Source: Promethearchaeota archaeon (GTDB taxonomy: Archaea > Asgardarchaeota > Thorarchaeia > Thorarchaeales > Thorarchaeaceae). Taken from it: 59,495 nt of DNA. Positions 435-17,471 of this stretch are shown one piece after another; the first letter of the stretch is position 1, and every line of letters begins with the position of its first letter. The position numbers and the translations under genes were made by a program. The stretch spans positions 1-59,495 of the forward strand of contig JBHLPF010000022.1 in NCBI GenBank assembly GCA_048939765.1, given 5' to 3'. The notes under the pieces were generated by a model. It did not search any database, was not told the DNA's origin, and was given only the letters and a program-made list of their open reading frames with translations.

Positions 435-2573
435 ATGAGTCCCAGTCAGCTAATGACAATGTCACGCAGAGCTACAGTTACATTGGAATGGTTGAGAAAA
501 GGGAGACCCCTCGACGACTCAACGATAATTGGATATCTCATGCGTGACTCTGTCAATACGGAAATCGGTGCGAAACTGAAATCCCTTGGAGGGAAGAAAG
601 GAGAAAGGAATTACAGAGATAGCCTCGTAAAATGGCAGTCCAACTTGGTGCTGATTCCCAGCCTATTCGAACGAGAGTTCAACCTTCCTGCACAAAGGGA
701 GAAGCCAATGGCATACAAGGAGATCGATGATGTTTTGAGCTGCTCACTAGTTCATCAAGAGGTTTCTAGACTTGACACTCCACTTATGCCCTCTGGCGAG
801 TCCTTGGAAGAGCAAATCAATTCATTGCTGCCTAAGTGTCTGAATAAGACCCTCAGCAAAAGAGCCAAGAAATCGGAGTATCTGTCCGAGAAGCGCGAAT
901 CGCTAGTCTATTTCCTCAGTCGAATTGCTATGGATTCCATGCCTAGCATTAGAGGATGGCCATTGGTACCAGTAGGTCTCAATAGTTTGTCAGCTGCGCT
1001 ATTCACGCTTCAATTCATTTCTCAAGCCGCACAAACTCAAATTCCATGGCTGGTGCTTATTTGGAAATATGAAATCGAGAGGTATCGAAATGAGCTATTG
1101 CTTGACCTCTTGGGGTCACTTTCGCATCAAATAACCGTGAAAGAAACAAGAGCAAAGATTGAACATATGAGTAGGGAAGTCAGGGAGGACTTGGGGGCAA
1201 GAGATCCTATCGTCGGATGGGCTCATGAATGGGAAGATCGACTCAAAGAGTTCAGTCCCAAGATGAAGCTTTTAGACTGCGAAGTAGCTGAAGAAGGAGG
1301 CCAGACCAATCCCGAATATGGTATGGGAAACGAGTCTTATGAGAATGAAATCTCGGATCTCAGGAAGAAATTGAGAGAAGAAATCCAACTAAGGATTCCT
1401 CGAAGCGGAGCTGCTCAGACACCGCAGACGCCACTTCCTCGTAGTATTTGGACTCAACTAAGCATTTCTACGGATGGTCCCCTTCCTTACATGTTCGAGG
1501 AACTCCTAAGTTCTGTCAGAGCTGAGTTGAATGTACTAGGTTTTCGACAATTGACTCAAACATGCGAATATCTATCAGATGTTGAAAAGCCGGGAAAACC
1601 AAGCGGAAGGGAAATTGCAGAAGCAGCCGATGTTGGAGCCAGATCTGCCAAAGTGAATTCGATTGGATTAACTCTCACTGAGAGATACATTCCCTCTTTG
1701 ATGGATTTGGGATTGAGATACAGATACATCTTCACAAGAATGCAGAAATCAGCATTGGACTCCCTTGGATTGGCTGAGCGAATAGCCATCTCAGAATCCA
1801 GCGCATATCAGATTGCAACAAAACATATAGAACCAACGACTTCTCATGGGCCTCAAAGTGAGGACTTGCCGGATGACTCCTTCCAGACAACTGTTGAAAC
1901 CGATATGATTTCGATGCGAATGGACTTGCTTGACGTCAAAGCTGGAAAATGGAAACAGCCGAAAGACATCTTGCTTCAAAAGGAAATCATCTCAAGTCGA
2001 GAAGCTAGGAAGACAAGGCAATGGCTCATTAGAAAGACATCACCACGAGTCAAGTCATACACCATGCCTACACAACGGGAGGTAGACCTTCTCAGTTTGA
2101 TTGGAAATGTAGACGCAAGTGCTAGAGGGATAAGGTGGCTATTCAACTCTATCAAGTTTCCATCAAGAACAGCGGAACATCTCATTGCTAGACTTCTAGG
2201 AAGCAATCGACTTAGGCTTCTCTATCATCCTTCCATAAAATATGCGGGTCTCCCAGAGGGGCTTCTTCTTGCCGCCAAATTCAGGACCGTCAAACGGCTC
2301 GATGAATTCGTTGAAGGATTGGCGGCCCTTTTTCCATTCGTGCATAGTCAATACAGCAGGACAGAGAAGAGCCTTGTTTCTCGAGTACGAATCGCTAGAT
2401 TCTCGAATCCAGAGGGTTTCATTAGAGATGAACTCCAAGAAGAGGATGCACTTAGAGTCATCGGCACAATTTCGAACAATCGAACGTACCACATGTCAGT
2501 GCTGCACAGACTGTATCAATCAAAGAATAAGCCTTGGAAAGACCCCTGGACGCATTCAGAGCCACTGCTCTAG
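435..2573 (+). CDS. Large hypothetical protein; C-terminal half resembles tandem Lrp/AsnC-type wHTH plus alpha/beta modules (putative regulator)
   Basis: 712 aa ORF. Two HTH-plus-linker segments: PSGREIAEAADVG...YIPSLMDLGLRYRYIF and FPSRTAEHLIARLLGSNRL...YHPSIKYAGLPEGLLL. The N-terminal ~340 aa are unassigned. Confidence 0.5.
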   Translation: MSPSQLMTMSRRATVTLEWLRKGRPLDDSTIIGYLMRDSVNTEIGAKLKSLGGKKGERNYRDSLVKWQSNLVLIPSLFEREFNLPAQREKPMAYKEIDDVLSCSLVHQEVSRLDTPLMPSGESLEEQINSLLPKCLNKTLSKRAKKSEYLSEKRESLVYFLSRIAMDSMPSIRGWPLVPVGLNSLSAALFTLQFISQAAQTQIPWLVLIWKYEIERYRNELLLDLLGSLSHQITVKETRAKIEHMSREVREDLGARDPIVGWAHEWEDRLKEFSPKMKLLDCEVAEEGGQTNPEYGMGNESYENEISDLRKKLREEIQLRIPRSGAAQTPQTPLPRSIWTQLSISTDGPLPYMFEELLSSVRAELNVLGFRQLTQTCEYLSDVEKPGKPSGREIAEAADVGARSAKVNSIGLTLTERYIPSLMDLGLRYRYIFTRMQKSALDSLGLAERIAISESSAYQIATKHIEPTTSHGPQSEDLPDDSFQTTVETDMISMRMDLLDVKAGKWKQPKDILLQKEIISSREARKTRQWLIRKTSPRVKSYTMPTQREVDLLSLIGNVDASARGIRWLFNSIKFPSRTAEHLIARLLGSNRLRLLYHPSIKYAGLPEGLLLAAKFRTVKRLDEFVEGLAALFPFVHSQYSRTEKSLVSRVRIARFSNPEGFIRDELQEEDALRVIGTISNNRTYHMSVLHRLYQSKNKPWKDPWTHSEPLL

Positions 2574-3548
2574 AGTCTCCTGATGAGTGCCAAATTGTTT
2601 CCACAACCTCATAAACTGAAGCTTAATCTGTTCTGCACGCTCTTCGACCATGAATATCGTCAACAACTCCATTAGCTTGGAAACTAATGGCGGATTAAGA
2701 TTGAGGATAATTCCATTTGTAGAAATGTAATTAGCCTCATCGAATGCCACTCTGCCATTCATAAACTCCCCACGTTCAATTGAGCCATAGCCTCGCGCTT
2801 TGAGCAATGATTCCAAACTCCCATGCCGCTGAAGGAGAAATATACCCTTCCTGGGGCCGATACCTTTCACTCCTTGCTTGTGAAAATCACATCCGCATAC
2901 CATAGCAAGATCCCTTAGACGCTCAATATCGAGCCCTGTGGTGTGTTCTAAATCAGCTAGTGTTGCTCTAAGTATCAGTCCTTTGGACAGCTGCAATTGC
3001 TTTGTCACATGGGGGCTACCAAATAGAAGTGCATCTGAGTCATTTGAAACAACCGTGTGTACTAGTCCGTCCCTGCATAGAGCAGCGGAAAACATCTCAG
3101 CCTCTGATGGCGCAGAGATTGCAGGCACACCTAAAACGCGGGCGAGTTCGCGTGTATGCTCCATAGCAAAGTACATTCTGAGAGAAGGGCTCTTCCTTAG
3201 TGGGTTGGCGATCTCCTCATCAAAGGGATCCCGAGTTTCTTTGAATTGCTCGTAGAAGGATTGTGCAGTGAGAATGAGTTCAGGATTTGGAGACCTCTTC
3301 ATACACTCAGGTGGACCGTCATAGACTAGGACAGGTAGCAGTGCGTTCTTCATGCACATTCTGACCAAGCTCAAAGTCATTCCTGCATGTTGAAGAGGAA
3401 TTCTACCGCTATCTCTTTTTGATGGCGGAATGACACTCACACGACGCGTTAAGTAGTTGGGCATATCTATCGCTATACTGCCAGGGGTCACTTCTTTCGC
3501 TTTGACCCAAACCCATGGGACTAGATTGCTCCAACCTGTCACACCCAT
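2556..3548 (-). CDS. FEN1/XPG-family structure-specific 5' nuclease paralogue with C-terminal PCNA-interacting (PIP) box
   Basis: Start MGVTGW at 3548 follows a GGTGA RBS. Catalytic acidic motifs IAID, VYDG, SEAE, SNDSDALLFG and GCDF; H3TH motif GVKGIGPRKG; C-terminal QETLEQWL PIP box. Confidence 0.9.
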   Translation of the reverse strand: MGVTGWSNLVPWVWVKAKEVTPGSIAIDMPNYLTRRVSVIPPSKRDSGRIPLQHAGMTLSLVRMCMKNALLPVLVYDGPPECMKRSPNPELILTAQSFYEQFKETRDPFDEEIANPLRKSPSLRMYFAMEHTRELARVLGVPAISAPSEAEMFSAALCRDGLVHTVVSNDSDALLFGSPHVTKQLQLSKGLILRATLADLEHTTGLDIERLRDLAMVCGCDFHKQGVKGIGPRKGIFLLQRHGSLESLLKARGYGSIERGEFMNGRVAFDEANYISTNGIILNLNPPLVSKLMELLTIFMVEERAEQIKLQFMRLWKQFGTHQETLEQWL

Positions 3549-3561
3549 ATATACATCACCA

Positions 3562-4287
3562 CTATCTGAAGGCCTGCAGACCATCTTTTGCTTCCATGAG
3601 AATCAGTGCCTGAGGTTCGGAAACTGCTGTACTCCGCTCGACCAAAACACGAATCAGATTCTTCCCTACGTCCAATCGATCAACTCTGACAACTGAGTCA
3701 ACAGCATGAGCAAGAACATTGCCACCAATGGGCGTGGGTCGACCTAAACTCCAGCTTCTTGAAGAATGGTCTGTCATCAGAAGATGAGCCCCAATATCAT
3801 TGACAAGCTCTCTCAAGACTTCAAGACAGTGGAAAAGCTCTCTTTGCCTTCCTGCGCTTCCTGGAGCACCTGAAAGATTCAGTACCCCCGTCAGACTATC
3901 TAGCACTATTACAGACACACAGCCCAAGTCGGGAATGGTTTTGCCAAGTTTCTCCAGGTCTGAAAGACTCAATACTCTTCCAACAACAACGCGACTGAGA
4001 ATCTTTGACACTTTGTTCTTGGAGATACACATCACTCGAGCCAATGTGGGACTGTAATTAGAACCTGAATCAATATAGACGGCATGTCCAGTATCAAGTT
4101 CAGCTGCGGCAATCGCTATGGCGTGAGCAAGCAACGTTAAGGGAGATCGCTCAGGGCCGTGAAGGAGACTCAATTGCTCCGGTACTAGAATGCCTCCGAG
4201 CAAGTCATCAAGTTGCCTCGGAGTAAGCGAGATTGTGGATTGTGTTTCGAAATCTAATGAATCAAGTGGCATTCGCAAGGGTGTCAT
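3562..4287 (-). CDS. RecA/Rad51-fold paralogue with inactivated Walker A
   Basis: LDDLLGG, degenerate P-loop HGPERSPLT (no GK), VYIDSG, Walker B VIVLDS and Rad51-type PIGGNVLAH. GGAGG RBS upstream. Confidence 0.85.
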   Translation of the reverse strand: MTPLRMPLDSLDFETQSTISLTPRQLDDLLGGILVPEQLSLLHGPERSPLTLLAHAIAIAAAELDTGHAVYIDSGSNYSPTLARVMCISKNKVSKILSRVVVGRVLSLSDLEKLGKTIPDLGCVSVIVLDSLTGVLNLSGAPGSAGRQRELFHCLEVLRELVNDIGAHLLMTDHSSRSWSLGRPTPIGGNVLAHAVDSVVRVDRLDVGKNLIRVLVERSTAVSEPQALILMEAKDGLQAFR

Positions 4288-5209
4288 TGACCTCCTTTAG
4301 GGTGGCATACCTGTGAAGTAATAGCGCATTGGCTAGTTCACCATCAGGAACTCTTTGAGAAACTAGACCGGGTGCTGCTGATTCAGGATAGATGATTCTA
4401 GGACCGGTCTTGCTTGGGAAAACAATCATGCGAGAGGGGAGGCTCCGTATCAGGTAATTGACGGCATCTTGATCAGTAGCTATGCAGTATTCAGCCATCG
4501 AAAGACCGTTTCTTTCATCAATAAGAGGGACCTTGAGTATTGCCTCCCGCAAGAGTGGTGAAACGTCACCCTTGATTATGATATTTGCTCTCAAGAGAAT
4601 ATCTCCGATCTGGGTCAAATTTACCCTCACAGAGTTTGCATCAATGAAGAGTGCGTCGCATTCATTGAAGTGAGTCAGTGAGATTGGTAGAAGCGGTCGG
4701 TCTCTCATCAGCGAGATGACCTTCTCCCGGCTTTCAGGAGTGAGCAGTACAACGTGATGTGATACATCCATGCTTATTACTGGACCGGACACTCTTGGGT
4801 CTCTGCTCAGCCGAGATATTGATGAGTCAGTAGACATCGATGCCATCCATTCTTTCAGGTTATTTGAGTCATACATCACTGAGCATCCAATAATCGTTAA
4901 TGCAGCACCTAAAAGAGAGGAAACCATCCCATAAGGCAATAGTCCAACGAATGCTACCACGGCAAGATATCCAGAGGATGCATAAGCAAGTATACCTAGA
5001 ATCGCAGAAAGTGTGTGTTTGGCGAATAGTCGTTTCAGCTGAATCAATGCCAATGTTGTGGCAACGGCAATAATCAAGGGAATGATGTTGCCGCTTCTAA
5101 AGGATATAACGACAAGTGCTACGGATGAGAGCAATTGGGCACCACCTGCCAAGGCAACAGCTCCTGCTATAGCCAATCCTATGATTTTCAGAATTCCTTT
5201 TCCAAACAA
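4262..5209 (-). CDS. Membrane protein with about 4 N-terminal TM helices and a soluble C-terminal domain, function unknown
   Basis: Four hydrophobic segments in the first ~115 aa. Likely TTG start at 5209 behind a GGAG RBS (ORF track starts at 5251). Confidence 0.75.
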   Translation of the reverse strand: MFGKGILKIIGLAIAGAVALAGGAQLLSSVALVVISFRSGNIIPLIIAVATTLALIQLKRLFAKHTLSAILGILAYASSGYLAVVAFVGLLPYGMVSSLLGAALTIIGCSVMYDSNNLKEWMASMSTDSSISRLSRDPRVSGPVISMDVSHHVVLLTPESREKVISLMRDRPLLPISLTHFNECDALFIDANSVRVNLTQIGDILLRANIIIKGDVSPLLREAILKVPLIDERNGLSMAEYCIATDQDAVNYLIRSLPSRMIVFPSKTGPRIIYPESAAPGLVSQRVPDGELANALLLHRYATLKEVNDTLANAT

Positions 5210-5874
5210 TTCGAGACCACTCCTTGCTGACGCGAAAGAAACAGTTGGCAAGCTCCGTTTTGCAGGACCTGCAGCTGCGCAATTTCGAAATTATTGCCAG
5301 ACTCTACAAAGGAAACGGAAGACGATTTGCGGGAAATATGCCTGCATACCTTGATGGTACTATCTGCCCATTTTGCTATTTCATTTGAAAACACTGGAAG
5401 ATTACCAGTTTCCGGATGGAATCTCATCTCACTAACAACAATGATGTCTATACCTCTTTCCAAGGACAATGCTCCCAAGGTTGGTAGCGCCTCCTCAATT
5501 AGCTCCTGCCCCCATAGGAGGGGATCAGTCCTAGACATGTCAAGCACCCTAGTAATGGGATCAATGACAATTAGAGACGTGTCTGGCGTTATCGCAATGG
5601 GCAGTCGTAACACGGCATCTAATGCCTGTTTGTGACCCTTTGTCATCATAACAGACACATTACTCTCCACTCCACTGAGATGCTTGATTGTTGCCTTCAG
5701 ATGAGGTATGAATCGTTTCTTTGAGTCGGCATTTATCCATTCCACGCGGGATGTCCGAGATGCATCAGCTGCGATAGCCGTCGCCAGCAGCGTTTTGCCG
5801 GAGCCTGCAGGTCCTATGACATGGATAATTCCTCCGAGCTCCAATAATGCGCGAAGGCTGTATTCACGAGTCAG
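5188..5874 (-). CDS. RadB-like short RecA-fold ATPase
   Basis: Walker A GPAGSGKT, WINAD, Walker B LIVIDP, IVVSE; no N-terminal HhH domain. Start uncertain: an in-frame CTG at 5874 lies just downstream of GGAGG, while the ORF track gives 5958. Confidence 0.8.
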   Translation of the reverse strand: MTREYSLRALLELGGIIHVIGPAGSGKTLLATAIAADASRTSRVEWINADSKKRFIPHLKATIKHLSGVESNVSVMMTKGHKQALDAVLRLPIAITPDTSLIVIDPITRVLDMSRTDPLLWGQELIEEALPTLGALSLERGIDIIVVSEMRFHPETGNLPVFSNEIAKWADSTIKVCRHISRKSSSVSFVESGNNFEIAQLQVLQNGACQLFLSRQQGVVSNCLEKEF

Positions 5875-7477
5875 AAGAGCTACCCTCCTCGAAGTCGCCC
5901 TGAGAAGATTGAACAAGATTTGTTGGCTCCTTACTTGCTGTGCTCGCAGCAACAACATCAGCCCCAGTGCGAATCTCTTCCTGAAACGCAGATTCGCCTA
6001 TTGTTACAGCGTTTATTACTGGGATTTCAACACCTTGAGATTTCATTGATGAGTGTAACATTGCATCAAGGAGATTTTGATCGAGCTCCTCATTCATCGA
6101 TGAATCGACTTTTTCAGCTCTTTCGGTGTTAGATGTTTCCGATGGAGGTTTTGTGTCAATCTCGTCAGGTTCAGCTAATGATCTGTCAATGGCATCAATC
6201 GTTCTCTTCATTGCTCTATTGTTGATCTTGTCATCAATCGTATCCTTGATATCAGGTCGAAGAGCTCCAGCGTTGTACAGTGCGTAGCTCAGATTGCCTA
6301 CATGTTCTATCATATCCTCGAAACTGAGAGGGGATGTGATATGAGCCGTAAGCGCAACATATGATAATGCTAATGATTCCTTTTCCACTTCAACTCCAAG
6401 AGCATCAAATAGACCTAGGAATCTTGATAGACCTTCATCTCCAACTCTTGGCGAATTCCCTTCCTCATTCCTGAGTGGAGCCAATCTTACGCATTCATCC
6501 AGAATGACACAAGCTGTTGCAATAGATTCTTGTAAGGCGCCAGCTTCGATAGTGTTTGCAAGATTTGCCAGTAGAGGGGATACAACAAAGCTGATGTCGC
6601 CTAATATTCGAAGATTGTCCTCGTTGGACTCTATGGACTGGTGAAGTCTTGTGGTGTCCCCAAGGGTTGAAAGAACCGCCTCTTCATTTCGCAAACACTT
6701 CTCAAATTCTCTCAAGTTGCCCTTGGAGCTTGAAAGCAGCCAGAGACCTGTTAGTAGTGACACCACCACCGTTATGAATGATAGGAGAGTTGAGCCAGAT
6801 TCAGAGAGCAAGATAATAGCTGTCGAGCCAACACCAATTGTACAAGCAGTCAAAGCCAATACTCCGGCCCATCCTCTCTTTATGCTGCGCTCCAACCAAT
6901 ACCACTTCTTCTGGCCGACCGCATGCTTGAGTTCAGGTAAGGATGATCGTGCATCACTTCTTCTTGCAAGGGCGAATTCCTCAATGGTCACTACTCTTCC
7001 TGAGTCAGTTAGCCAAGACAGATCCATTGAGGGCTTCACAGTCCTAGTCACAACATAGACCGTCCTCGTTGGATGAATCAACGAGACCTTCCTGCCTTTG
7101 CTTCCTCGTAGCATGAGCAGTGACACAGAATCCATAGGAGTTTTCAACTCCCTTCGTTCAAGATAGTCTCCTAATCCAACGTCATGCAAGACAGTTTCTA
7201 ACCCTCGATTGACACTCTCCAAAAGCGCGGCTCTCATGGCCAAGCCACTTTTGCCGAAACGGGCTGTCCTCAGGTCCAGAACGTAAACCAATTCTACATG
7301 GACACCTCGTGTTCCAGGGATGGGTTCCAAGTGTACAGCACTAATTAGTCCGTTTGGATACTCACATGTAAAATGGCCTGAAGCTCTGAGTACATCAATA
7401 AGATCACCACTTGGTCGTTCAGTTTCATTCCCAATACCTGCATTGGGTCGTGTGTTTTCGCGACTTGATATTGCCAC
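5864..7477 (-). CDS. Membrane-anchored protein (central TM hairpin, helical domain, acidic tail), function unknown
   Basis: 537 aa with two hydrophobic helices around aa 203-250 and an acidic low-complexity C-terminus. GTG start after GGAGGTG. Confidence 0.75.
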   Translation of the reverse strand: MAISSRENTRPNAGIGNETERPSGDLIDVLRASGHFTCEYPNGLISAVHLEPIPGTRGVHVELVYVLDLRTARFGKSGLAMRAALLESVNRGLETVLHDVGLGDYLERRELKTPMDSVSLLMLRGSKGRKVSLIHPTRTVYVVTRTVKPSMDLSWLTDSGRVVTIEEFALARRSDARSSLPELKHAVGQKKWYWLERSIKRGWAGVLALTACTIGVGSTAIILLSESGSTLLSFITVVVSLLTGLWLLSSSKGNLREFEKCLRNEEAVLSTLGDTTRLHQSIESNEDNLRILGDISFVVSPLLANLANTIEAGALQESIATACVILDECVRLAPLRNEEGNSPRVGDEGLSRFLGLFDALGVEVEKESLALSYVALTAHITSPLSFEDMIEHVGNLSYALYNAGALRPDIKDTIDDKINNRAMKRTIDAIDRSLAEPDEIDTKPPSETSNTERAEKVDSSMNEELDQNLLDAMLHSSMKSQGVEIPVINAVTIGESAFQEEIRTGADVVAASTASKEPTNLVQSSQGDFEEGSSSDS

Positions 7478-7478
7478 C

Positions 7479-9686
7479 TCAATCTACACCTCCAAGACTC
7501 TGTTTCTTGCTTTTCGCAAGTCTTGTTTCTAGTCCTTCCATCAACCTCTGTGAAACCGCAATTGGCTGTTTCAAACCGCCTACTTCTGCGACGGCCACCA
7601 CTGCATAGAGCAACCAATGAGCGGCTTCTAGGAGTCCATAGGCATCACCCAGATGAAAGCCGGAACTCCGAGCCAACTCCTCAAGAGGAATGTCAGTTGT
7701 AGCTGCAGCAGCGATTAGATGTTCAAAAGTATCCTCCAGTGAAGTTCCTGATTCGATTGAGACCAGATGCTTCAAGAGCCATAGTAGCGTTGTACTCTCC
7801 TCAATCCTCGGTAAGAGCGCCAATAGCTCACGAATTGTTGGAATGCTGAGATAAAGCCGGTTTACAATCCTACCCAATCGTGTAGGCTTTAGCTTTCCAT
7901 CTATTCCGCCCTCGATAAGGCCCAGCCTGATGAGAAGCTCACTTGGACTCAGCTCGCTCAACGCGACTGGTATCACGTAATCTGCAAGATTGCCTAGCTC
8001 TCTTGCTGCATACAGTCCTAACGCAACCAAGTGAGGACATAGAACTCCATGGTTATCAATAGGTCTAGAGCATGAGCACTGCGGACCTTCCACGACACCC
8101 TCGGCAGAGAGACGAGCCGAGTACCTGCAGGTATAGTGCCCGTCCTCCCATGCCGCTACGATGCCACCAATAACACTATCATTTGTTTCTCTAAGGCTAA
8201 CGCTCCCCAGAAGCCCCAGTCGGGCTGGGCGAACAGTGTCTGACGTCGCATGCTTCTCAATTGCTGATTCTGCACTTATTTCGCCCAGCTGAAGAACCCG
8301 CATGGGAGAGTTTGCATCTCTAAGTCCGGTGAACATCAGGTAGGAATCTCCTAGGAATCCATCTGCAACATCGTCCAATGTTGCTTCGTCTAAGGCGTCT
8401 AGGGCAACTAACAGTTGCTCACTCAATGTCGCTGATTCACCCAGTCTGCTAATTACCCGGTCATATTTGGGAAAGATGATCTTGGTTGATGAATCAGCAT
8501 CTTGTGAGGAGAGAAAGTATCGCTTCTCTACTTCTTCAGCTTCTCCGGAGCTTCCGACAAGAATAATCCCAAATCCGGCCTTATCATAGCCAGGCCGACC
8601 AGCTCGACCTAGCATTTGATGTACGGAGTTCGCCGGAAGCATTGCTCGGTGATTTCCCGGAAACCGCACATTGGTAAGAACAACTGTTCTTGCAGGGAGA
8701 TCCATTCCAGCCGCAAGTGTTGTTGTGGCACAAATGAGTCGTACTTTCCCCCGGAGAAACAATTCCTCCACGAGTCGCCGTGCCCGAATTCCTAGGCCTG
8801 CATGGTGATATGCCGTTCCGTCATGAAGAAGGGTCCTCAGTTCTGGTGGCATATTGACATTCCAATTCTCAATTGACTCAAGCTCCTTGTCGAGGTCTTC
8901 CTTCTCAGTTCTAGTGTTATGCCGTCCAACATCCCCTGAAAGACGCATAGCCTGTGATTCAGCCTCACGTCTCGTCCGATGAAATACAATTGCTTGGCCA
9001 TCGCCTTGCACTGTTGTCATAACCAGCTGACGAAGGGCCCGCTCCTTGTGCTTGGAAGGAATAACACGATAGACCAAAGGCACAGGACGATCTTCTGATT
9101 CAACAAGAACGCAGCCAAGCCACTCAGCAAGCTCATCCGGAGAGCCAACTGTCGCTGAAAGCCCAATCAACTGCAAGCCTTCAATCAATCGCTTGAACCT
9201 TATTATGATAGATTCAAGACGAGCGCCCCTTCCAAAATCTGAAATTGTCTGGATCTCGTCTATGACCAAGGAGCCAATGGAATCTAGCCAAGCTGTCTTT
9301 CGTCTCAGCAAAGAATCCGCTCTCTCGTATGTTGTCACAACGACATCATACTCCGAAAGGTCCCCACCATCATTCGAAAAATCCCCTGTACTCACACCAA
9401 TCCGTAGGCCTAGAGGCTCATACCTGTCTATCAGAAGTCCATACACCTGCACAGCGAGTGCCTTTAGCGGAACCAGATAGATTCCTTTCTTTCCAGTTAG
9501 TGCCGCTCGTAAGAGAGCCATCTCACCTACCAATGTCTTACCAGAGCCTGTTGGACTGCAGACCATAATACTTGCGCCATCAAGAAGACCGCGGTCAATC
9601 GACACTTTCTGAATCCCTCTCGGCGTCAATCCCAGTTGATGGAGAAGCCTGTGAACTTGTTCCTGGACATCAGCTACAACGATCAT
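7479..9686 (-). CDS. Ski2-like/Hel308-family SF2 helicase with inserted SWIM zinc finger
   Basis: SPTGSGKT, LVPLKALA, TTYER, DEIQ, GLSAT, YHHAGL, CATTTLAAGMDLPA, QMLGRAGRPGYD; SWIM signature CSC-x10-CPH at 8031-8078. Confidence 0.92.
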   Translation of the reverse strand: MIVVADVQEQVHRLLHQLGLTPRGIQKVSIDRGLLDGASIMVCSPTGSGKTLVGEMALLRAALTGKKGIYLVPLKALAVQVYGLLIDRYEPLGLRIGVSTGDFSNDGGDLSEYDVVVTTYERADSLLRRKTAWLDSIGSLVIDEIQTISDFGRGARLESIIIRFKRLIEGLQLIGLSATVGSPDELAEWLGCVLVESEDRPVPLVYRVIPSKHKERALRQLVMTTVQGDGQAIVFHRTRREAESQAMRLSGDVGRHNTRTEKEDLDKELESIENWNVNMPPELRTLLHDGTAYHHAGLGIRARRLVEELFLRGKVRLICATTTLAAGMDLPARTVVLTNVRFPGNHRAMLPANSVHQMLGRAGRPGYDKAGFGIILVGSSGEAEEVEKRYFLSSQDADSSTKIIFPKYDRVISRLGESATLSEQLLVALDALDEATLDDVADGFLGDSYLMFTGLRDANSPMRVLQLGEISAESAIEKHATSDTVRPARLGLLGSVSLRETNDSVIGGIVAAWEDGHYTCRYSARLSAEGVVEGPQCSCSRPIDNHGVLCPHLVALGLYAARELGNLADYVIPVALSELSPSELLIRLGLIEGGIDGKLKPTRLGRIVNRLYLSIPTIRELLALLPRIEESTTLLWLLKHLVSIESGTSLEDTFEHLIAAAATTDIPLEELARSSGFHLGDAYGLLEAAHWLLYAVVAVAEVGGLKQPIAVSQRLMEGLETRLAKSKKQSLGGVD

Positions 9687-12040
9687 CTTTCTGCTTCATC
9701 TCTCTGTGCAACTTGATGAAGGGCCATGCTGCCTTTCATGGTGATTCGGTAGTTCGTATACGAAACCGCCCCATGGACCTCATGACCCCTGAGTATCATA
9801 CCCGACTTTTCCAGCCTGGCCAGCACTCCACTGATGTCAGGGTCTCCTTTCACATCTCCTGAAAGGAGAAACTTTCGCATTGCTTCCTCTGTTAGTGGCT
9901 CATACCTCTCAAGTAGTCTAAGCATCTTGATGGCGGTATCCCTCTGTCCACCTGCGACTCTATCAATCAATGAATCGCCAAAAGCCACTCCCTCGTTGGG
10001 AGGCCCCCGAGGAATGATATCAGATATCCGTGTTTCGAGCTCCTCAGGACTAAGCCCGGAAAGAGGGGCGGTTTCATCCAACTCAACTGGCATGCATGTT
10101 TCGCCCTGATTCCTGACCAGAAGCACGACTCCGTTGGGCATAACTCTTAGATATGATGTTTCTCTGGATGATTGACGGGCTTTGCTATGGATACCAGATG
10201 AAACGACACTGATACCAAGCAATTCAACAGCAGTCTTTAAGTCCGGACTCTCACGAAGTCGGTGAGTGATGCAAGAGCTCAGTTTACCAATTGCACCAGG
10301 AGCCATGTCTACTGGATGGTCCAGAGCAACAATTGTGGGACCTCTCTGCAACATGTCCCGAAGCATCATCTCGCTCCATGAATCCCTCTTCATATATCGA
10401 CGGTTTCGAATCCTCATGTTCTCTGCATTCTCGAGAATGATAGTGAGATCCTGATCCTCTTGGAGCCCTGAAAGCTTGATGCACACGAGATCAAAGGCGA
10501 ATTTCTCCATGGGCAGATATCCTTGAGATAGCACCAGCACCCCGAGCTTGGTCTGAGCCAAATCACGCATGGAGATTGTCTGAGATCCATAGAAGGAACG
10601 CGATGCAGTTCCTTGGTGTAGAGATCTTATTGCCTCATAGCCTGACATGCTTTTATCAGATGGCTTCCGTTCGTTAGGCTCATCCACCTCTGAATAGGCA
10701 TTCATGACATCTGGAGTCTGGGTCAGTTGAACATCAGCCACCGTTGTATTGCCTAAGGCGATAGCACGATTGATTGCTAGTTCTAAGTCAGTTGCACCGC
10801 GAAGGTCAGTGCCAGCAATTACCTCTAGAGCAGTCATCAATTTGGACACATAGATATGTCTCGGAAGCCCTTCCGCGTCCATAGGATTTAGTACCAGATC
10901 TCTCCCAAGCTCAAATGATACTGCACCTTCAGAAAGGGATGCGAAATTCTTGGCATCACGTTCACTACTCACAATAATGACCCGCTTTCCATGTGACAGT
11001 AGCTGTTTCACGATCAAGGTGAGGGTATGTCTTCGCTCTTCTAAAGTCCCGCCGCAGACTAACAGTCCTGATCGGATATCATCGTGTGATAGACCAGTAG
11101 CAGGTCCGGGTCGAAGAGTTTCTGGATTTATCACGCGGCCTATGTAATAATCTCCTGCTCTGGGCTTTATGGGTGCAAGGAACTCACCTGGAACATTCGA
11201 CCCAATCTCAGATGCAAGCTCACTAGGAATCTGTATCAGCCACTCTGAGAGTTCGGTTCCAGCGGCATAGAATAATGGAAGCCTAGGGGTCATGTTCATC
11301 ACCCGCATATACGAAGCTAAAGATTTGGGCTTTATCTTAGACCAGTTTCCATCCGGAACTGCTGCCTTAATCGATGACTCGAATCTTTGAACCTGATCGA
11401 TATCCTGCGAGTGCCCCATAATCGAGACCCGGACCGACCAAAGGCCTCCGCGCCTGGTCATATAGGCATCCAATCCGCCGCTTGAAAGATAGTTCAAGTA
11501 TCCATCCAATCGCGAAGAAAGACGCTCTTCCTCCACGATGGATGAGAATTCTTCTGGCCTTGCTATCACTGATAGACAGAATCCCTTTGAGCTATCGATG
11601 GCTCTAACGAGTGCACTCACATTTCCCACCAATAGAGGGCCAGCCAATGGCAGCTGCAATCCTATCACGTTGCGATTGCCGGATGGCGTTTTACACTGAA
11701 CGACATCGTGTTCTCCGTTCACTGCGAAGGAAGTATCACTCTCGGGAACACGAACCCATTCTGATTCTTGCAGGGAGCGAACTTCTTGTGAGGCCCTCAG
11801 TTTGGGGACTAATATCGTAGCAAGAAGACTAGCAAGGGAAACCAGAGCAAGACTCAATGGCAATGCCGCAAGAATGACTGCTACGGTGATTGCTGTGATT
11901 GCATCACGACCGTGGGATGGTTTCACTCTTCTGTCATCCCATTGAAGTTCAATCCCACCACTCACAGTCATGGTGGGCTGAGTGATCTCCTTCAGTGGAT
12001 CAACTTCGGGCTCGGTACCGAGAATCAGACGCTTACCCAA
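9683..12040 (-). CDS. Membrane-anchored HerA/VirB4/CedB-like P-loop protein with degenerate ATPase motifs and C-terminal wHTH
   Basis: N-terminal TM segment. Family hallmarks appear in order: YYIGRV, LLVCGGTLEERR (Walker A position), LVLNPMD, IILENAEN (Walker B position), ALDHPVDM...CITHRL, YLRVMPNGVVLLV. wHTH ends YRITMKG. Confidence 0.7.
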   Translation of the reverse strand: MGKRLILGTEPEVDPLKEITQPTMTVSGGIELQWDDRRVKPSHGRDAITAITVAVILAALPLSLALVSLASLLATILVPKLRASQEVRSLQESEWVRVPESDTSFAVNGEHDVVQCKTPSGNRNVIGLQLPLAGPLLVGNVSALVRAIDSSKGFCLSVIARPEEFSSIVEEERLSSRLDGYLNYLSSGGLDAYMTRRGGLWSVRVSIMGHSQDIDQVQRFESSIKAAVPDGNWSKIKPKSLASYMRVMNMTPRLPLFYAAGTELSEWLIQIPSELASEIGSNVPGEFLAPIKPRAGDYYIGRVINPETLRPGPATGLSHDDIRSGLLVCGGTLEERRHTLTLIVKQLLSHGKRVIIVSSERDAKNFASLSEGAVSFELGRDLVLNPMDAEGLPRHIYVSKLMTALEVIAGTDLRGATDLELAINRAIALGNTTVADVQLTQTPDVMNAYSEVDEPNERKPSDKSMSGYEAIRSLHQGTASRSFYGSQTISMRDLAQTKLGVLVLSQGYLPMEKFAFDLVCIKLSGLQEDQDLTIILENAENMRIRNRRYMKRDSWSEMMLRDMLQRGPTIVALDHPVDMAPGAIGKLSSCITHRLRESPDLKTAVELLGISVVSSGIHSKARQSSRETSYLRVMPNGVVLLVRNQGETCMPVELDETAPLSGLSPEELETRISDIIPRGPPNEGVAFGDSLIDRVAGGQRDTAIKMLRLLERYEPLTEEAMRKFLLSGDVKGDPDISGVLARLEKSGMILRGHEVHGAVSYTNYRITMKGSMALHQVAQRDEAER

Positions 12041-12335
12041 CAGAAGCCCCTCCTGTGGTTGAAATGGATCTTATCTGGCGTCGCAACATGTCAAGCACGC
12101 GTTGCAATCGTTCCGCGTATACGGCGTCTGATCCTGACACGAGGAGCAAATTCTCTCCAACAAGAAGAATCTCTGGCATGTTTCCAAGATCTGATGATCC
12201 ATGAGCAACTAGTGTCGGGTTTTTTGTCAGCACTAGCCAGTTATAGCTATGGCCTATCTCAAGTGAATGCATCACTGCTTCGTGTGTCACGCCAAATGGA
12301 AGCTCGATGGCTATCCTATCACCTGACTTGAGCAT
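12033..12335 (-). CDS. Small hypothetical alpha/beta protein
   Basis: About 100 aa, overlapping both neighbours; ATG at 12335 after GGAGGTG. Confidence 0.7.
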   Translation of the reverse strand: MLKSGDRIAIELPFGVTHEAVMHSLEIGHSYNWLVLTKNPTLVAHGSSDLGNMPEILLVGENLLLVSGSDAVYAERLQRVLDMLRRQIRSISTTGGASVG

Positions 12336-12918
12336 ATGGCTCAACACCTCCAGAGGTCACCATCAATAGATCATCCAATCCTGCTAGATCAATAGGCATG
12401 TGAGGATAGGCGGCTCTCATTGAACTCTCAAGGACTGCTGCGTCAGTGACAATTTCATCTGCAATCGAAGATGCCCTCTTTATCCCATCTAAGAACCGAA
12501 TGCCTCTTCGCGCAACAAGCATCCCCGCACGGGTGATACCATCTCCTGCGGGTCTGCAGAGAAAGAACCGAACTTCTCCATTCTTCTTCCCATCATATCG
12601 CGCATGAAGAGCTCGAAGCACCTTGGATGCTGAATGGCTAAGGTCTAGTCCGATGGGAACGCTTGTCATCAATCGTCCTGCTAAGACCTCCAGCGTAAAT
12701 GGCCGAAGAATGGCAAGGACACCTCGCTGATCATCCCAAACAATGAGAGGTTGTTGATTGTTCCTCCAACTCAGAGCCAAGAGTCCTGCAGATACTATAG
12801 TGATTAAGGATAGAAGAACGTCCATATTTCCCCAAGACACCCAGATTCCAAGAATTGCACCAAGTATCAATGTGCCAAGGCCAATCCATCTAATCTCCCA
12901 TCGCTCGTACCATGCCAA
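12319..12918 (-). CDS. Membrane protein (N-terminal TM hairpin), apparently paralogous to the N-terminal region of the 785 aa HerA/VirB4-like protein
   Basis: Two TM helices at aa 10-52; LESSMRAAYP matches FESSIKAAVP in the 785 aa protein. Confidence 0.7.
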   Translation of the reverse strand: MAWYERWEIRWIGLGTLILGAILGIWVSWGNMDVLLSLITIVSAGLLALSWRNNQQPLIVWDDQRGVLAILRPFTLEVLAGRLMTSVPIGLDLSHSASKVLRALHARYDGKKNGEVRFFLCRPAGDGITRAGMLVARRGIRFLDGIKRASSIADEIVTDAAVLESSMRAAYPHMPIDLAGLDDLLMVTSGGVEPYAQVR

Positions 12919-12919
12919 T

Positions 12920-14875
12920 TCAACTTCCCTCCCTCAATGCTATGAACTGTGAAATCGCAGCCTTCAGCTCAGCAACATCCCCAAAGGGCCAGATATCAGC
13001 TACCATGTCATCACCAAACACCCGGACATGCTTGAGAAAACGCTTGTCTAGAAGAACGACAATACCCCAGTCCTCAGGCGCTCTTCTGAGTCGACCAAGA
13101 ACTTGGGCGACCTGACGAATGGATGGGACCAGCGCTCCGTAATAGTATCCGGCTCCTTCTCCAAATCTGCCATCATAGAACTCTTGCAGTGCTCTTTGGT
13201 AGCTTGTGGGAGGGGAGAATGGAATCCCGACTCCAATGATTAAATCTATCATACTGGAGCCGCCTTTCACCAGATCGACCCCCTCTGAGTATTTCCCTCC
13301 GAAGACACAGAAGATGGCGTGAGGACCAATTTCCAAGGCTTCTGCAACGGTTTCGATGCGGTCGCCTCTCTCTTCAACGAGAGTTCCGCGATATCCCGAG
13401 TCAATGCCGTAGCTCAAGACTTCATGGAGAATCTTGTAGCTTGGAAACGCAATAAGGGCGCTCTTATTTGCTGGAACCGTTGTGAGTACGGTGTTTATTC
13501 TATCAGCAAGTGCACGCCAGAGGTCGGGACCTCTTGCCTGATACTTGGTTGTGTGCTCTCTGTCGATGAGCACAAGTCTGGTAGATCGGGGATATGGACT
13601 TGCTAAGTCCTCCGTTATGGCACCCCCAACGCCCAATAGTCTTGCGTAATGGTCAAGGGGTCTCAGAGTTCCAGACATCAGGAGCGCGGATCTTGCGCCC
13701 CTAAGGACAGGTGCAGAAAGACCAGATGCGTTTAGGGGCCGAATCATCAGCGTTGCTCTCGAAGCGGTTAGCGCTTCCTCCCAGGATCGTTTCACATTGA
13801 GCGTCACATGCCATCCTTCGCTTCTGGTAGATAGATGGGCCACAAAGAGGAACTCGACAAGTCTGTCCAGTGGTGTTTCCATTGAAACAGCCACCTCGGG
13901 GTCACCGATGTTGGGGCTAGTAGTTTCATGCATAAGCCGCAAATCCGACTCTTCTATGAATCTAGGAGCCACATCCCACTTGGCTAGTGTACGCTCTGAT
14001 CTTCTATTCATACCGTCAAGGTTGAGCATCATTGTTTCGTAGAGGAAGTCCACAGCCTCTCCAATCCAACTGATGCTGGTTTCCTTGACAATCTCCGACT
14101 TATGATCCCTTAACCATCGGAGGTCTTCACCATTCAGCCTGGCTGTTTCCGAGTCAAGCGCATGATCTGACAGGTTGTGGGCTTCATCAACAAGCAAATC
14201 AACATCATGGAGTGAGAGTCCCAATGATGATAGAAGAGCCTCGCGCACCCTTGACCTGAACATGTAGCTATATGGTCCAATTATGACCTTACTCTGTCTC
14301 GCGCACCAACGCATCACCTCATACGGGCACACGCCCTCCGTGGTGCAGAGGTCTTCCACTCGCTCACGTGTCACAACGCCCGTGTTTAGTAAGTCCTCAA
14401 CACGTTCTCTAACCCACTCCCTGATGACACTTCGACCATCGCCTGAGCTTTTTCTATAGACATTGTGGTAATATGTACATTGCCCAGTCTTAATCATCGA
14501 TGCGCAGGCTCGCATGAAGCCTGTAGATGTGTCGGAGTCAATCTCGCTTCGAATTGGACACATATGGATTCTCGAAACCATAGTGGTGGCCGTAAGTTCA
14601 GGCATCAGTGCCCTAAGGACATCAAGTTCAATCTCGAATACCCTTGACTGACTATGAGTTCGTGTCAGTACAATCAATCTTGAGCTAGCGTCACTGCCCC
14701 TTGCAGCAAGATATCCTGATAGAACTGCCACCGTCTTTCCGACGCCACAATCAGCGGAGAGTAATCCCACTGTCTTGGATGAAAAGACTTCTGCAGCAAA
14801 CCGTACAGCCTTGTCTTGATGCAATCTAGGTGTATAGGGAAACCACATGAGAGGATCAGTAACTGCAGTACTCAA
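12920..14875 (-). CDS. XPD/Rad3/DinG-family Fe-S cluster 5'-3' DNA helicase
   Basis: ADCGVGKT, LTRTHSQ, four Fe-S cysteines (HMCP, RACA, GQCTYY, GVCPYE), VDEAHNL, MSGTL, AFPSY, GGKYSEGVD, GIPF, QVLGRLRRAPEDWGIVVLLDKRF. Confidence 0.95.
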   Translation of the reverse strand: MSTAVTDPLMWFPYTPRLHQDKAVRFAAEVFSSKTVGLLSADCGVGKTVAVLSGYLAARGSDASSRLIVLTRTHSQSRVFEIELDVLRALMPELTATTMVSRIHMCPIRSEIDSDTSTGFMRACASMIKTGQCTYYHNVYRKSSGDGRSVIREWVRERVEDLLNTGVVTRERVEDLCTTEGVCPYEVMRWCARQSKVIIGPYSYMFRSRVREALLSSLGLSLHDVDLLVDEAHNLSDHALDSETARLNGEDLRWLRDHKSEIVKETSISWIGEAVDFLYETMMLNLDGMNRRSERTLAKWDVAPRFIEESDLRLMHETTSPNIGDPEVAVSMETPLDRLVEFLFVAHLSTRSEGWHVTLNVKRSWEEALTASRATLMIRPLNASGLSAPVLRGARSALLMSGTLRPLDHYARLLGVGGAITEDLASPYPRSTRLVLIDREHTTKYQARGPDLWRALADRINTVLTTVPANKSALIAFPSYKILHEVLSYGIDSGYRGTLVEERGDRIETVAEALEIGPHAIFCVFGGKYSEGVDLVKGGSSMIDLIIGVGIPFSPPTSYQRALQEFYDGRFGEGAGYYYGALVPSIRQVAQVLGRLRRAPEDWGIVVLLDKRFLKHVRVFGDDMVADIWPFGDVAELKAAISQFIALREGS

Positions 14876-15498
14876 GTATTAGCCTCCAGATGTAGACAGG
14901 ACTCGCTCGTGTGGATTCTGAACCGCAGAGAGAAGTACTTTCGTAGAAGCTGATGGAACTGCCACATCAATGAAGGCGATTTGTATCCTATTTCCTTGTT
15001 TGCCATTCGCTCCACGATTTCTGGATTGAACCCTTTCTGACGAGCAATCTTCCAGAACCAGGCTTCCACCTCTCGCCTAGTGGAGCATATGTGACTCACT
15101 GAGCTCTCTATAAGGTTAGTAAGAGATCGTACAGCCTCCTTAGGCTTGCTGGGCAACTGTGAAACTCTTACTCCTGTTGGTAGATAGACGGCAATTCCCT
15201 CAGCGCTGTCCAGATATATCTCATGAGGGACCCCCTTTGTCCCCCTCAATGTTTCAAGGAGAGAAAGCAGCCTCGGAAGTTGCGGCAACGCCGGTTTGTT
15301 GAGGTCAGGGTCTCTCCAATCAACCCTAGTGACGACGTGAATTTCAGGATCTGGAGCTGCACATTTCTCTAGGACTGTTACTCGATGTGATGTTTCTCTC
15401 ATGAGGAGATTCACAAGATTGATCATTGTGTAGTTCGCGACAGTCGGAGGAGTTCGCGGAACCCAGACATAGTTGCTCTCCGATTCGCTACCTGCCAA
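14872..15498 (-). CDS. Hypothetical protein (208 aa)
   Basis: TTG start 1 nt after the upstream stop, behind GGAGGTG; TTGA overlap with the XPD-like gene. Confidence 0.75.
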   Translation of the reverse strand: MAGSESESNYVWVPRTPPTVANYTMINLVNLLMRETSHRVTVLEKCAAPDPEIHVVTRVDWRDPDLNKPALPQLPRLLSLLETLRGTKGVPHEIYLDSAEGIAVYLPTGVRVSQLPSKPKEAVRSLTNLIESSVSHICSTRREVEAWFWKIARQKGFNPEIVERMANKEIGYKSPSLMWQFHQLLRKYFSLRFRIHTSESCLHLEANT

Positions 15499-15499
15499 C

Positions 15500-15943
15500 C
15501 TACCACACCTCCATTGGAATGGTGACTAGTCCACCATTCTTGATTACTTCACCCTCCGAAACGAGAGAGTCAAGGAATGTCATTGCACGAGAGATATCGA
15601 TACCAGCATCGCTGCATTCTCTCATGACGTCTTCAATCGATACCGGTCGGCCTCGATTTAGATCAACTAGCGCTTCGATGATGTAGTAGACACGCCTCTT
15701 AATGCCCAGTCCCCTTCCTCCACTCCGGGGCTTGGCATTCTGCCGCGACTCTATCACAAGCTCACGGACACTCGACTGCGCTTCCTGAACTGTTACCGCA
15801 TAGATTGTTCCAGGAACATGAAGGATCAGACTTCTGCATAGACTGCATCTCGACTCCTCTTGCTCATTCTCGACTAGTGCGTATCCGATATTTGTGCAAC
15901 TGGGACACTGGTAGACTCTGAACATCCCTCGTTCCGAGGTCAC
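15500..15943 (-). CDS. Zn-ribbon plus C-terminal winged-helix protein (DUF1922/DUF5817-like architecture), putative DNA binder
   Basis: CPSC...CSLC; C-terminal wHTH VSIEDVMRECSDAGIDISRAMTFLDSLVSEGEV; GTGA overlap with the RadA-like gene. Confidence 0.75.
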   Translation of the reverse strand: MTSERGMFRVYQCPSCTNIGYALVENEQEESRCSLCRSLILHVPGTIYAVTVQEAQSSVRELVIESRQNAKPRSGGRGLGIKRRVYYIIEALVDLNRGRPVSIEDVMRECSDAGIDISRAMTFLDSLVSEGEVIKNGGLVTIPMEVW

Positions 15944-17007: not shown

Positions 17008-17471
17008 ACCAAAGCCTCCTCAACAATTGTGTCAGACAAGGGCCCATGGATTGGAACGAGTCTGAGAAACGATGGAATCTCATCCAGAGGGACCACTATC
17101 TCACCGCTAGACACATACACATGACCGGGCGATAGCAAGCGGGCCACATCTTTCTGACGGGCCAATGGCACTTTGAAGTAGAGACCTTCAGGGCAGAATT
17201 CGCCTGTTACACTCACAAACCCTCCCAGTGCGTCATATGCAGATCCTATTGCACCATCTCCAAACGTGGGGCTTGTGCCTGGTTCTGCTGGTTCAATGTT
17301 GCCATGATGAAGTAATAGTTCTAAAAGATCTTCAATAAACGGCCCCCATAGCCACTTCGGACTACGATGACTATTGATTTCAAGTCCTGCAGCTGCCCCC
17401 GCGAGCCATGCCGCGCTGGGCAAATCCACAGGAGAAATCGCATGCCTCTTCAATACTTCATCTGCGAGCAT
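17004..17471 (-). CDS. Hypothetical protein (155 aa)
   Basis: TAATG overlap with the upstream gene and ATGA overlap with the RadA-like gene; GGAGG RBS. Confidence 0.75.
   Translation of the reverse strand: MLADEVLKRHAISPVDLPSAAWLAGAAAGLEINSHRSPKWLWGPFIEDLLELLLHHGNIEPAEPGTSPTFGDGAIGSAYDALGGFVSVTGEFCPEGLYFKVPLARQKDVARLLSPGHVYVSSGEIVVPLDEIPSFLRLVPIHGPLSDTIVEEALV

Follow-up and report, generated by a model that had tools for sequence, protein, structure and literature searches.

A Thorarchaeota gene row in which a RadA-type pseudo-ATPase and a RadB-like short ATPase flank a membrane protein

What could two short RadA-type proteins, one of them with a degenerate ATP site, be doing on either side of a membrane protein in an archaeon? 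RAD51 paralogues that pair a live with a dead ATP site occupy a central place in eukaryotic recombination and in how it is controlled; studies of archaeal paralogues have, to our knowledge, been limited to RadB and a few from crenarchaea. The question arises from a locus on contig JBHLPF010000022.1 (assembly GCA_048939765.1), part of a metagenome-assembled genome (MAG) of Thorarchaeota within the Asgard archaea (3.37 Mb, 108 contigs, 88.5% complete), of which we analyzed a stretch of 59,495 nucleotides, referred to as the window. A first-pass annotation had pointed to truncated Rad51 paralogues flanking a protein with four transmembrane (TM) helices at positions 3562-5874, and this observation is real. 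Genes A (3562-4287), B (4262-5209), and C (5188-5916), all on the minus strand, are intact and partly overlapping open reading frames (ORFs), the helices of B appear in its AlphaFold2 (AF2) model, and the arrangement was found in all 15 loci compared from other genomes of the host's GTDB family (Thorarchaeaceae, f1). As to the borders, the start coordinate in A was kept, whereas the end at 5874 cuts C short, as its closest annotated homologues start at the equivalent of TTG 5916.

Several features mark the three genes as a unit. The starts of C, B, and A each lie inside the gene before them, which they overlap at its 3' end by 53, 22, and 26 nt, respectively. An AAGGAG is found 4-10 nt ahead of each start. 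Ratios of nonsynonymous to synonymous substitution rates (dN/dS) of 0.13-0.25 across A, B, and C demonstrate purifying selection on each of them. Since the order C-B-A, followed by a gene for a FEN-1-like nuclease, recurred in 15 of 15 loci, the arrangement is not due to chance. By these features of the sequence, C-B-A is a translationally coupled and strongly conserved unit.

Protein A (241 aa) comprises a RadA/Rad51 core without a helix-hairpin-helix (HhH) N-terminal domain. It matched the Pfam family Rad51 (PF08423) with 39.2 bits over profile positions 8-229 of 244 (curated cut-off: 22 bits). The top NCBIfam models were RadB, ranked first, and RadA, both far under their equivalog cut-offs (49.5 bits against 172.4 for RadB, TIGR02237). 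A profile of 34 A orthologues retrieved P. furiosus RadA (62.8 bits), DMC1/RAD51 (48-60 bits), and RadB (37 bits), and no KaiC matches at E up to 0.001. Within its own genome, the nearest relatives of A are the canonical RadA (58 bits) and a second RadA, termed RadA2 (54 bits), with which hhalign gave a probability of 98.8% (E 6.5e-17).

At the P-loop position of RadA, RadA2, and RadB, A carries the degenerate Walker A GPERSPLT (residues 44-51; 4135-4158, minus strand). All 34 aligned orthologues lack a Gly-Lys pair at this position, with the consensus hGPERxPLT and the pattern G-x-[ED/..][RK]-x-[P/L]-[LMI]-[TS]. Alignment with recombinases further revealed a change from DTE to DSG, by which the catalytic Glu is gone, and from TNQ to TDH. 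Two hallmarks of an active recombinase, i.e., the Walker A GxxxxGK[ST] and the catalytic Glu, are both missing from the A sequence and, by equivalent changes, from all 34 orthologues, and A is predicted to neither bind nor hydrolyze ATP in its own site. The first-pass annotation had described this contrast, GPAGSGKT in one paralogue and GPERSPLT in the other, and had stated that the dead-P-loop protein keeps Walker B and GGNVLAH. The contrast holds across the aligned sequences (GxxGxGK[TS] in 35 of 35 for C, no GK in 34 of 34 for A). The latter statement was likewise borne out, as Walker B D130 and H194 are invariant in the 34 orthologues. The same applies to R149 in the L1-like GRQR, and to P186, G188, and G189 of PIGGNVLAH (residues 186-194; 3706-3732, minus strand), the RadA/Rad51 motif after loop L2, which includes the conserved His and aligns with PVGGHVLAH of the genome's own RadA. 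In Rad51-type filaments, this His faces the ATP of the neighboring protomer. In sum, A shares with archaeal RadA and RadA2, the type to which its best sequence matches belong, Walker B, the L1 sequence RQ(R/Q), and P(I/V)GG(N/H)(V/I)LAH; it differs from them by the lack of HhH, the P-loop Lys, the catalytic Glu, TNQ, and, as judged from the alignment with RadA and RadA2, the FxxA polymerization motif. The HhH domain is missing from both paralogues, in agreement with the first-pass annotation: neither A nor C gave an HHH_5 match, and both start after the linker in the alignment with RadA and RadA2, A just ahead of the core.

A dN/dS of 0.13-0.25, calculated against three congeners, identifies A as a maintained pseudo-ATPase and not a decaying gene. 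Together with intact ORFs in 44 genomes, this value led us to discard a pseudogene interpretation.

Protein C (242 aa) is a RadB-like short RecA-fold ATPase. Its ORF extends to 5958 and the start is uncertain, TTG 5916 having been placed by the closest annotated homologues with less certainty than the start of B; the first 17 residues are unconserved and show low predicted local distance difference test (pLDDT) values. The Walker A motif is intact (GPAGSGKT, residues 35-42; 5791-5814, minus strand) and reads GxxGxGK[TS] in all 35 aligned sequences, with G35, G40, and K41 invariant and T42 nearly so. C also keeps Walker B D119. A conserved Asp replaces the catalytic Glu, a Glu replaces the Gln sensor (SExR for TNQ), and a RadB-like xxW(A/S)D stands in place of GGxxxAH. 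Because of the former two replacements, hydrolysis by C may be slow.

In Pfam, C matched generic P-loop families only (AAA_25, 29.9 bits), with no match to PF08423 at E up to 0.1, and some of its homologues carry precomputed AAA_25 or KaiC matches. Its best NCBIfam model was RadB (TIGR02237; 25.7 bits, E 9e-6), again without reaching the cut-off of 172.4. The C profile aligned end to end with T. kodakarensis RadB (PDB 2cvf; E 7e-6), followed by RAD51D, XRCC3, and RadA. Searched against 1.84 billion representatives, it recovered 40 family members at E up to 1e-30 and then a gap, beyond which proteins of ~230 aa appeared, 50 of the 51 scanned matching the RadB model. Five longer proteins from the same search were inspected for fusions, and no obvious hydrophobic N-terminal extension was seen among them. 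The closest relative of C in its own genome is a canonical-type RadB-like gene on contig C93 (67 bits), which has a counterpart in 31 of 31 f1 genomes searched. By sequence, C belongs to the short RadB-like paralogues in the broad sense, i.e., those with an N-domain-less RecA core of ~220-240 aa and nearest relatives of the RadB type. The likeness to archaeal RadB lies in the short RecA core without HhH, the full-length profile alignment, and the xxW(S/A)D common to both. C differs from RadB in that neither C nor A attains the TIGR02237 cut-off, in the presence of the separate RadB-like gene in the same genome, in the Asp and Glu at the catalytic and sensor positions of C, and in the location of the C gene between membrane genes.

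The AF2 model of C (pLDDT 88, predicted template modelling score 0.85) pointed in the same direction. The VIA-wide structural comparison yielded Z scores of 20.3 for both DMC1 and a RAD51C-XRCC3 chain, 20.0 for the BCDX2 chain 8faz_X (236 residues), which has no N-terminal domain (NTD), 19.5 for Rad51, 18.5 for RecA, 16.8 for RadB, 15.2-15.5 for FlaH and KaiC, and 12.4 for Sak4. The top 50 Foldseek matches were all Rad51-type, and Dmc1, RAD51C-XRCC3, XRCC2, and RadA were the leading matches over both tools.

Are A and C then a pair in the evolutionary sense? They are homologous (hhalign: 95.4-95.7%, E about 1e-8), and C and RadA2 gave a similar value (95.7%). We calculated two quick maximum-likelihood trees (81 rows, a single KaiC-like outgroup) with support values from the Shimodaira-Hasegawa-like approximate likelihood ratio test (SH-aLRT) only. 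The A clade (support 100) fell within a set (97) together with canonical RadA, RadA2, and short Asgard RadA paralogues, while the C clade (99-100) was located on the opposite side of a split (97), with RadB and RadB-like proteins. Both are on long branches, so that the trees assign a side to each and not an exact position. The term "pair" used by the first-pass annotation therefore holds insofar as both proteins come from the RadA/RadB/Rad51 group; the trees place them as neither sisters nor recent duplicates, one originating from the RadA side and the other from the RadB side.

Kinship with KaiC-like signaling ATPases, named in the first-pass annotation as the finding that would speak against it, was seen neither for C (sequence, profile, structure) nor for A (sequence, profile). 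By sequence comparison, and for C also by its model, A and C are members of the RadA/RadB/Rad51 group and not of the KaiC type; with one KaiC-like outgroup, the tree alone is a weak test of this. The point is relevant to the main competing explanation, in which A and C would serve a membrane machine as subunits for its assembly or regulation. The model for this is ArlH/FlaH, a KaiC-like RecA-fold protein, which in the archaellum docks on the motor ATPase and on the polytopic membrane protein associated with it. By analogy, the role of a nucleotide switch would fall to C and that of a structural copy to A, and each would bind to B, to the neighboring membrane protein D, or to a VirB4-like protein instead of a recombinase filament. 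We consider this possible, although rather doubtful. ArlH/FlaH and KaiC-type proteins are likewise RecA-fold proteins of ~230 aa that act on membrane machines, FlaH and KaiC are clear structural matches to the C model, and the loss of the catalytic Glu, the Gln sensor, and GGxxxAH from C, as well as the interleaving of the A and C genes with membrane genes rather than a position beside RadA2, would suit such a role. However, these structural matches lie ~5 Z units below the Rad51-type matches of C, Rad51, RadA, and RadB outrank KaiC and FlaH by sequence as well as structure, and neither A nor C matched PF06745, KaiC (TIGR0388x), or ArlH (NF052589) models at E up to 0.1. In addition, the strictly conserved L1-like RQR and PIGGNVLAH of A are hard to explain without an interface to DNA or a filament.

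Gene B, located between the two, encodes a protein of 315 aa. Its ORF reaches 5251, and the start at TTG 5209 was set by 38 homologues and the database gene call. In the AF2 model (pLDDT 82), four hydrophobic helices (residues 3-38, 43-61, 67-89, and 95-113) are followed by a disordered linker (127-146) and a conserved, well-predicted alpha/beta domain (151-300) at the C-terminus. Across 39 homologues, Lys and Arg residues averaged 4.8 on the side formed by the N-terminus, loop 2, and the region after TM4, compared to 1.0 in loops 1 and 3. By the positive-inside rule, B is probably oriented N-in/C-in with a cytoplasmic soluble domain. The dN/dS of B is 0.20-0.23. B belongs to no Pfam or NCBIfam family, and its homologues were confined to Thorarchaeota MAG proteins. 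Foldseek returned nothing from the PDB at E up to 0.001 (best match: an ESX-3 chain, E 4e-3, TM-score 0.24), and no usable match was obtained from the ESM Atlas. The VIA-wide comparison yielded mainly generic helical-bundle matches to the TM part; the match to the N-domain of TrwK/VirB4 (7o42_A; Z 6.9, 161 residues, root-mean-square deviation 4.2) is within the background range of the tool. A module shared by B with D, a 199-aa protein of the same row, or the VirB4-like protein was also considered and dropped, since hhalign probabilities were 2.5% or less.

The three genes are part of a co-oriented minus-strand row that spans 2556-18220. From 2556 onwards, it comprises the genes for the FEN-1-like nuclease, A, B, C, D, a Hel308-like helicase, a 785-aa VirB4-like protein without Pfam family, the 199-aa protein, an XPD-like helicase, a 208-aa protein, and RadA2, followed by two small ORFs. 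RadA2 (15940-17007, minus strand) is a full-length second RadA with an intact ATP site (PF08423 186.8 bits, with an HHH_5 match). Its clade received SH-aLRT support of 99-100 and includes copies from two further Asgard families, i.e., the sister family f2 (genome G016, L082, contig C1 22745-23803) and f19 (genome G094, L083 4223-5290). The polymerization motif of RadA2 is FxxG (GFKSG), while that of the canonical RadA of the same genome is FxxA (GFETA). A 2025 preprint on Asgard RadA (10.1101/2025.05.23.655837) distinguishes two RadA clades; divergent and RadB-like sequences had been removed, and Thorarchaeota are unmentioned. RadA2 may be a candidate for the second of these clades. With a conserved, coupled unit adjoining a second RadA, the link between membrane and recombinase suggested by the first-pass annotation appears reasonable.

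Taken together, C, B, and A may well be co-translated as one unit within a membrane-associated recombination operon specific to Thorarchaeota, with A and C acting as accessory or end-cap subunits of a RadA-type filament. We favor this reading tentatively, and every protein contact and every DNA-binding, capping, or mediator role in it is inferred. Both proteins lack the N-domain that the next protomer needs for filament extension, and because of this lack A and C would be non-extendable subunits. For NTD-less RadB, Rad55, and XRCC2, a capping of filaments has been proposed, as they cannot accept another protomer (PMC7618403). The likeliest client, judging from the gene context, would be the operon's own RadA2. 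C could provide nucleotide-dependent binding, and A could serve as a nucleotide-independent terminal subunit. B would tether both at the membrane, beside the VirB4-like, membrane, and SWIM-Hel308-like proteins, a putative site of single-stranded DNA (ssDNA) handling.

Several results weigh against this proposal. Without GGxxxAH, the catalytic Glu, and the Gln sensor of recombinases, C may not act as a filament subunit at all. The topology of B is a prediction from the positive-inside rule, and neither Foldseek nor VIA revealed a recognizable partner-binding fold in its soluble domain. A mirror-tree analysis of rate co-variation among 11 operon proteins yielded partial r-values of 0.10 for A-C and 0.44 for A-B, a result from only 8 genomes and thus too small a sample to count for or against A-C pairing. 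Lastly, A and C may be independent of RadA2, judged from the variant locus in genome G058 described below.

Regarding distribution, A orthologues were present in 44 of 60 sampled f1 genomes (at least 245 bits to the A profile, or split at contig ends), and C in 45 of 60. No A orthologue was found in ~190 Asgard genomes outside f1, whose best score was 84 bits. Named homologues come almost exclusively from "Candidatus Thorarchaeota". The complete 13-gene order, from I249 to the FEN-like gene, was colinear in 13 of the 15 loci; one further contig ends early, and the remaining locus is that of G058. A, C, and the 785-aa VirB4-like protein were jointly absent from 12 of the 60 f1 genomes, four of which are 90-92% complete. 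This is consistent with loss of the row as a unit, and incomplete assembly may account for the others. The patchy presence of the row would also fit a mobile element or an anti-virus defence island with the RecA-like proteins as sensor or effector ATPases, and for the Hel308-like protein there were matches to generic helicase models belonging to defence systems. We nevertheless regard this explanation as highly improbable. The same gene order and the same flanks (a GH3-family gene and a 712-aa ORF) across genera indicate vertical inheritance. A, B, C, D, the VirB4-like protein, and RadA2 were without meaningful PADLOC match, the two matches of C being P-loop-only with E above 1e-4. No tRNA gene lies within the 59.5-kb window; the search did not extend to integrase genes or element borders.

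The locus of G058 (L029; same genus, single 2.58-Mb contig) retains Hel308L-D-C-B-A-FEN, while in place of the upstream half it has two ORFs without Pfam match (814 and 1232 aa) and an opposite-strand 265-aa Rad51-family ORF. Neither the XPD-like gene nor the 785-aa VirB4-like gene nor an operon-type RadA2 was found within the 20 kb fetched, which contain 400 N. The persistence of this sub-module where RadA2 was not detected is a further point in favor of A and C as membrane-machine subunits. It could also be accommodated if C, with or without A, were a stand-alone annealing or ssDNA-binding protein like phage Sak4, which would work with the Hel308-like and FEN-like proteins and dispense with a RadA filament. 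The nearest relatives of C are RadB-like short proteins, Sak4 is described as a RadB-like annealase (PMC5928155), and DNA annealing is known for both Hel308 and HELQ (PMC13623763), members of whose type are encoded in the stable sub-module. Still, we consider such a protein distinctly improbable, as the Z score of C with Sak4 (12.4) is far from the ~20 obtained for Rad51-type proteins, a full RadA2 is encoded in 13 of 15 fetched loci, and it would not account for the conserved presence of a pseudo-ATPase and a membrane protein beside C.

Outside of f1, the single genome of the sister family f2 (G016) encodes FEN-like, 223-aa A-like, 404-aa B-like, and 226-aa C-like proteins in the same order, with D-like, Hel308-like, VirB4-like, XPD-like, G208-like, and RadA2-like genes further along. 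In the f2 A-like protein, GGPGTGKT, DTE, and TNQ are all intact, and the best tree groups it with the A clade as its sister, at weak support (59). Since this counterpart retains its P-loop, A probably lost its own on the f1 (Thorarchaeaceae) stem, as far as can be judged from these sequences. Of the 404-aa protein, only the N-terminal 4-TM part is homologous to B (80.7%, E 1.3e-5). The f2 C-like protein joined the C clade in the best tree together with a short RecA-like protein from family f8 (G066), again with weak support (42). In f8, the gene for this protein adjoins a gene for a TM-plus-soluble-domain protein, a Hel308-like gene, and a split VirB4-like gene, a recurring neighborhood that would also be expected for subunits of a membrane machine. 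The 294-aa membrane neighbor in f8 was considered as a relative of B and rejected, as similarity was undetectable.

As a separate observation on these two loci, giant proteins are encoded within or adjacent to the related clusters. In f2, a protein of 2599 aa (L081 4591-12390) combines a prenyltransferase-like alpha-alpha toroid with many Ig-like, filamin, and macroglobulin domains. In f8, a protein of 1081 aa with the same toroid domain (L088 16283-19528) is encoded directly upstream of the short RecA-like gene. From their domain content, both look like surface proteins. In G066 (L088 8800-9729) and G103 (L087 6299-7189), which represent two Asgard families other than f1, the split VirB4-like genes are followed by one for a NifH/MinD-like P-loop protein (GKGGIGKST).

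How does the row compare to known recombination systems? The eukaryotic RAD51 paralogue complexes, i.e., BCDX2, XRCC3-RAD51C-RAD51D-XRCC2, Rad55-Rad57, and Shu, likewise combine ATP-competent with ATP-inactive RecA-core subunits. The first-pass annotation had likened A and C to mediator heterodimers such as Rad55-Rad57 and Psy3-Csm2, which nucleate or cap Rad51 filaments; by this comparison they would be a putative heterodimer. C resembles the eukaryotic paralogues in its structural matches (RAD51C-XRCC3 chain, Z 20.3; 8faz_X, Z 20.0). We know of no membrane protein between the subunits of any eukaryotic paralogue complex; A and C, in turn, are confined to one archaeal order. The Hel308 orthologue HELQ is a binding partner of BCDX2 (PMC13623763), and the Shu complex joins the Rad51 paralogues Csm2-Psy3 to the SWIM protein Shu2 (PMC5727457). 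In contrast to Shu, where SWIM resides in a separate subunit, the SWIM motif of the row is located inside the Hel308-like helicase. A far-reaching version of the proposal would assume an asymmetric live/dead A-C complex, tethered by B, which loads or caps RadA2 on ssDNA delivered by an apparatus of VirB4-like, membrane, and surface proteins, with the SWIM-Hel308-like helicase as a partner. Such a complex would correspond, in Asgard archaea, to the eukaryotic RAD51 paralogue-HELQ-SWIM (Shu) network, to which it might even be related by descent, and would be coupled to DNA exchange between cells. In this full form, we judge it to be unlikely.

Among archaeal systems, we know of no RadA paralogues in Ced DNA import. 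Similarity of B to Ced components was not seen, in searches none of which was aimed at Ced. The likeness to Ced of Thermoproteota (PMC9905601) is one of context alone, i.e., chromosomal VirB4-type and membrane protein genes that handle cellular DNA.

No paper describing the A, B, or C families or the operon was found in the literature. Added here are the split RadA-side and RadB-side origin, the assignment of the probable P-loop loss to the f1 stem, AF2 models for B and C, and the data on selection and co-absence. The locus belongs to the closest archaeal relatives of eukaryotes and encodes a RadA-derived subunit whose ATP site was probably lost on one identifiable branch and which is kept under selection. 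The A gene travels with those for a RadB-like ATPase, a membrane protein, a second RadA, and a SWIM-containing Hel308-like helicase (with RadA2 not found in G058), and the loss of its ATP site can be compared directly with the intact counterpart in the sister family. If the proteins assemble, they would offer a simple two-subunit model for the control of a recombinase filament by a pseudo-ATPase. Should the membrane-tethered arrangement prove true, it would be the first such module tethered to a membrane and would bear on DNA exchange between Asgard cells.

Regarding the other row members, the divergent FEN-1-like nuclease (2556-3548, minus strand) matched TIGR03674 with 116 bits (below cut-off) and XPG_I with 65.8 bits. 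It starts with MGV at ATG 3548, 13 nt beyond the A stop, and the alignment of homologues begins at residue 13 of the long ORF. Upstream of C, the 537-aa membrane protein D (5864-7477, minus strand) gave no family match above threshold and was colinear in 15 of 15 loci. The Hel308-like Ski2 helicase (7479-9686, minus strand) matched Hel308 models with 285-334 bits over its N-terminal half. Its SWIM-type CxCx10CxH motif (8031-8078) is invariant in 15 of 15 orthologues, and the Pfam SWIM model was silent on this protein at E up to 0.1. A promoter and terminator scan left the coding strand empty, using bacterial-type models that are not informative for archaea.

Some minor observations concern RecA-like and recombination genes elsewhere. 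In genome G000, the second of two adjacent KaiC-type matches (contig C49 9193-9831, L042) contains 2 in-frame TGA codons, and in-frame TGA or TAG codons are also listed for several of the RadB-like matches from related genomes. These stops may reflect match overhang, frameshifts, or recoding. On the plus strand of the window, a few kb from the operon (22144-24509), a gene for an Mre11-like phosphoesterase is followed by one for a short (429-aa) Rad50/SbcC-like ATPase.

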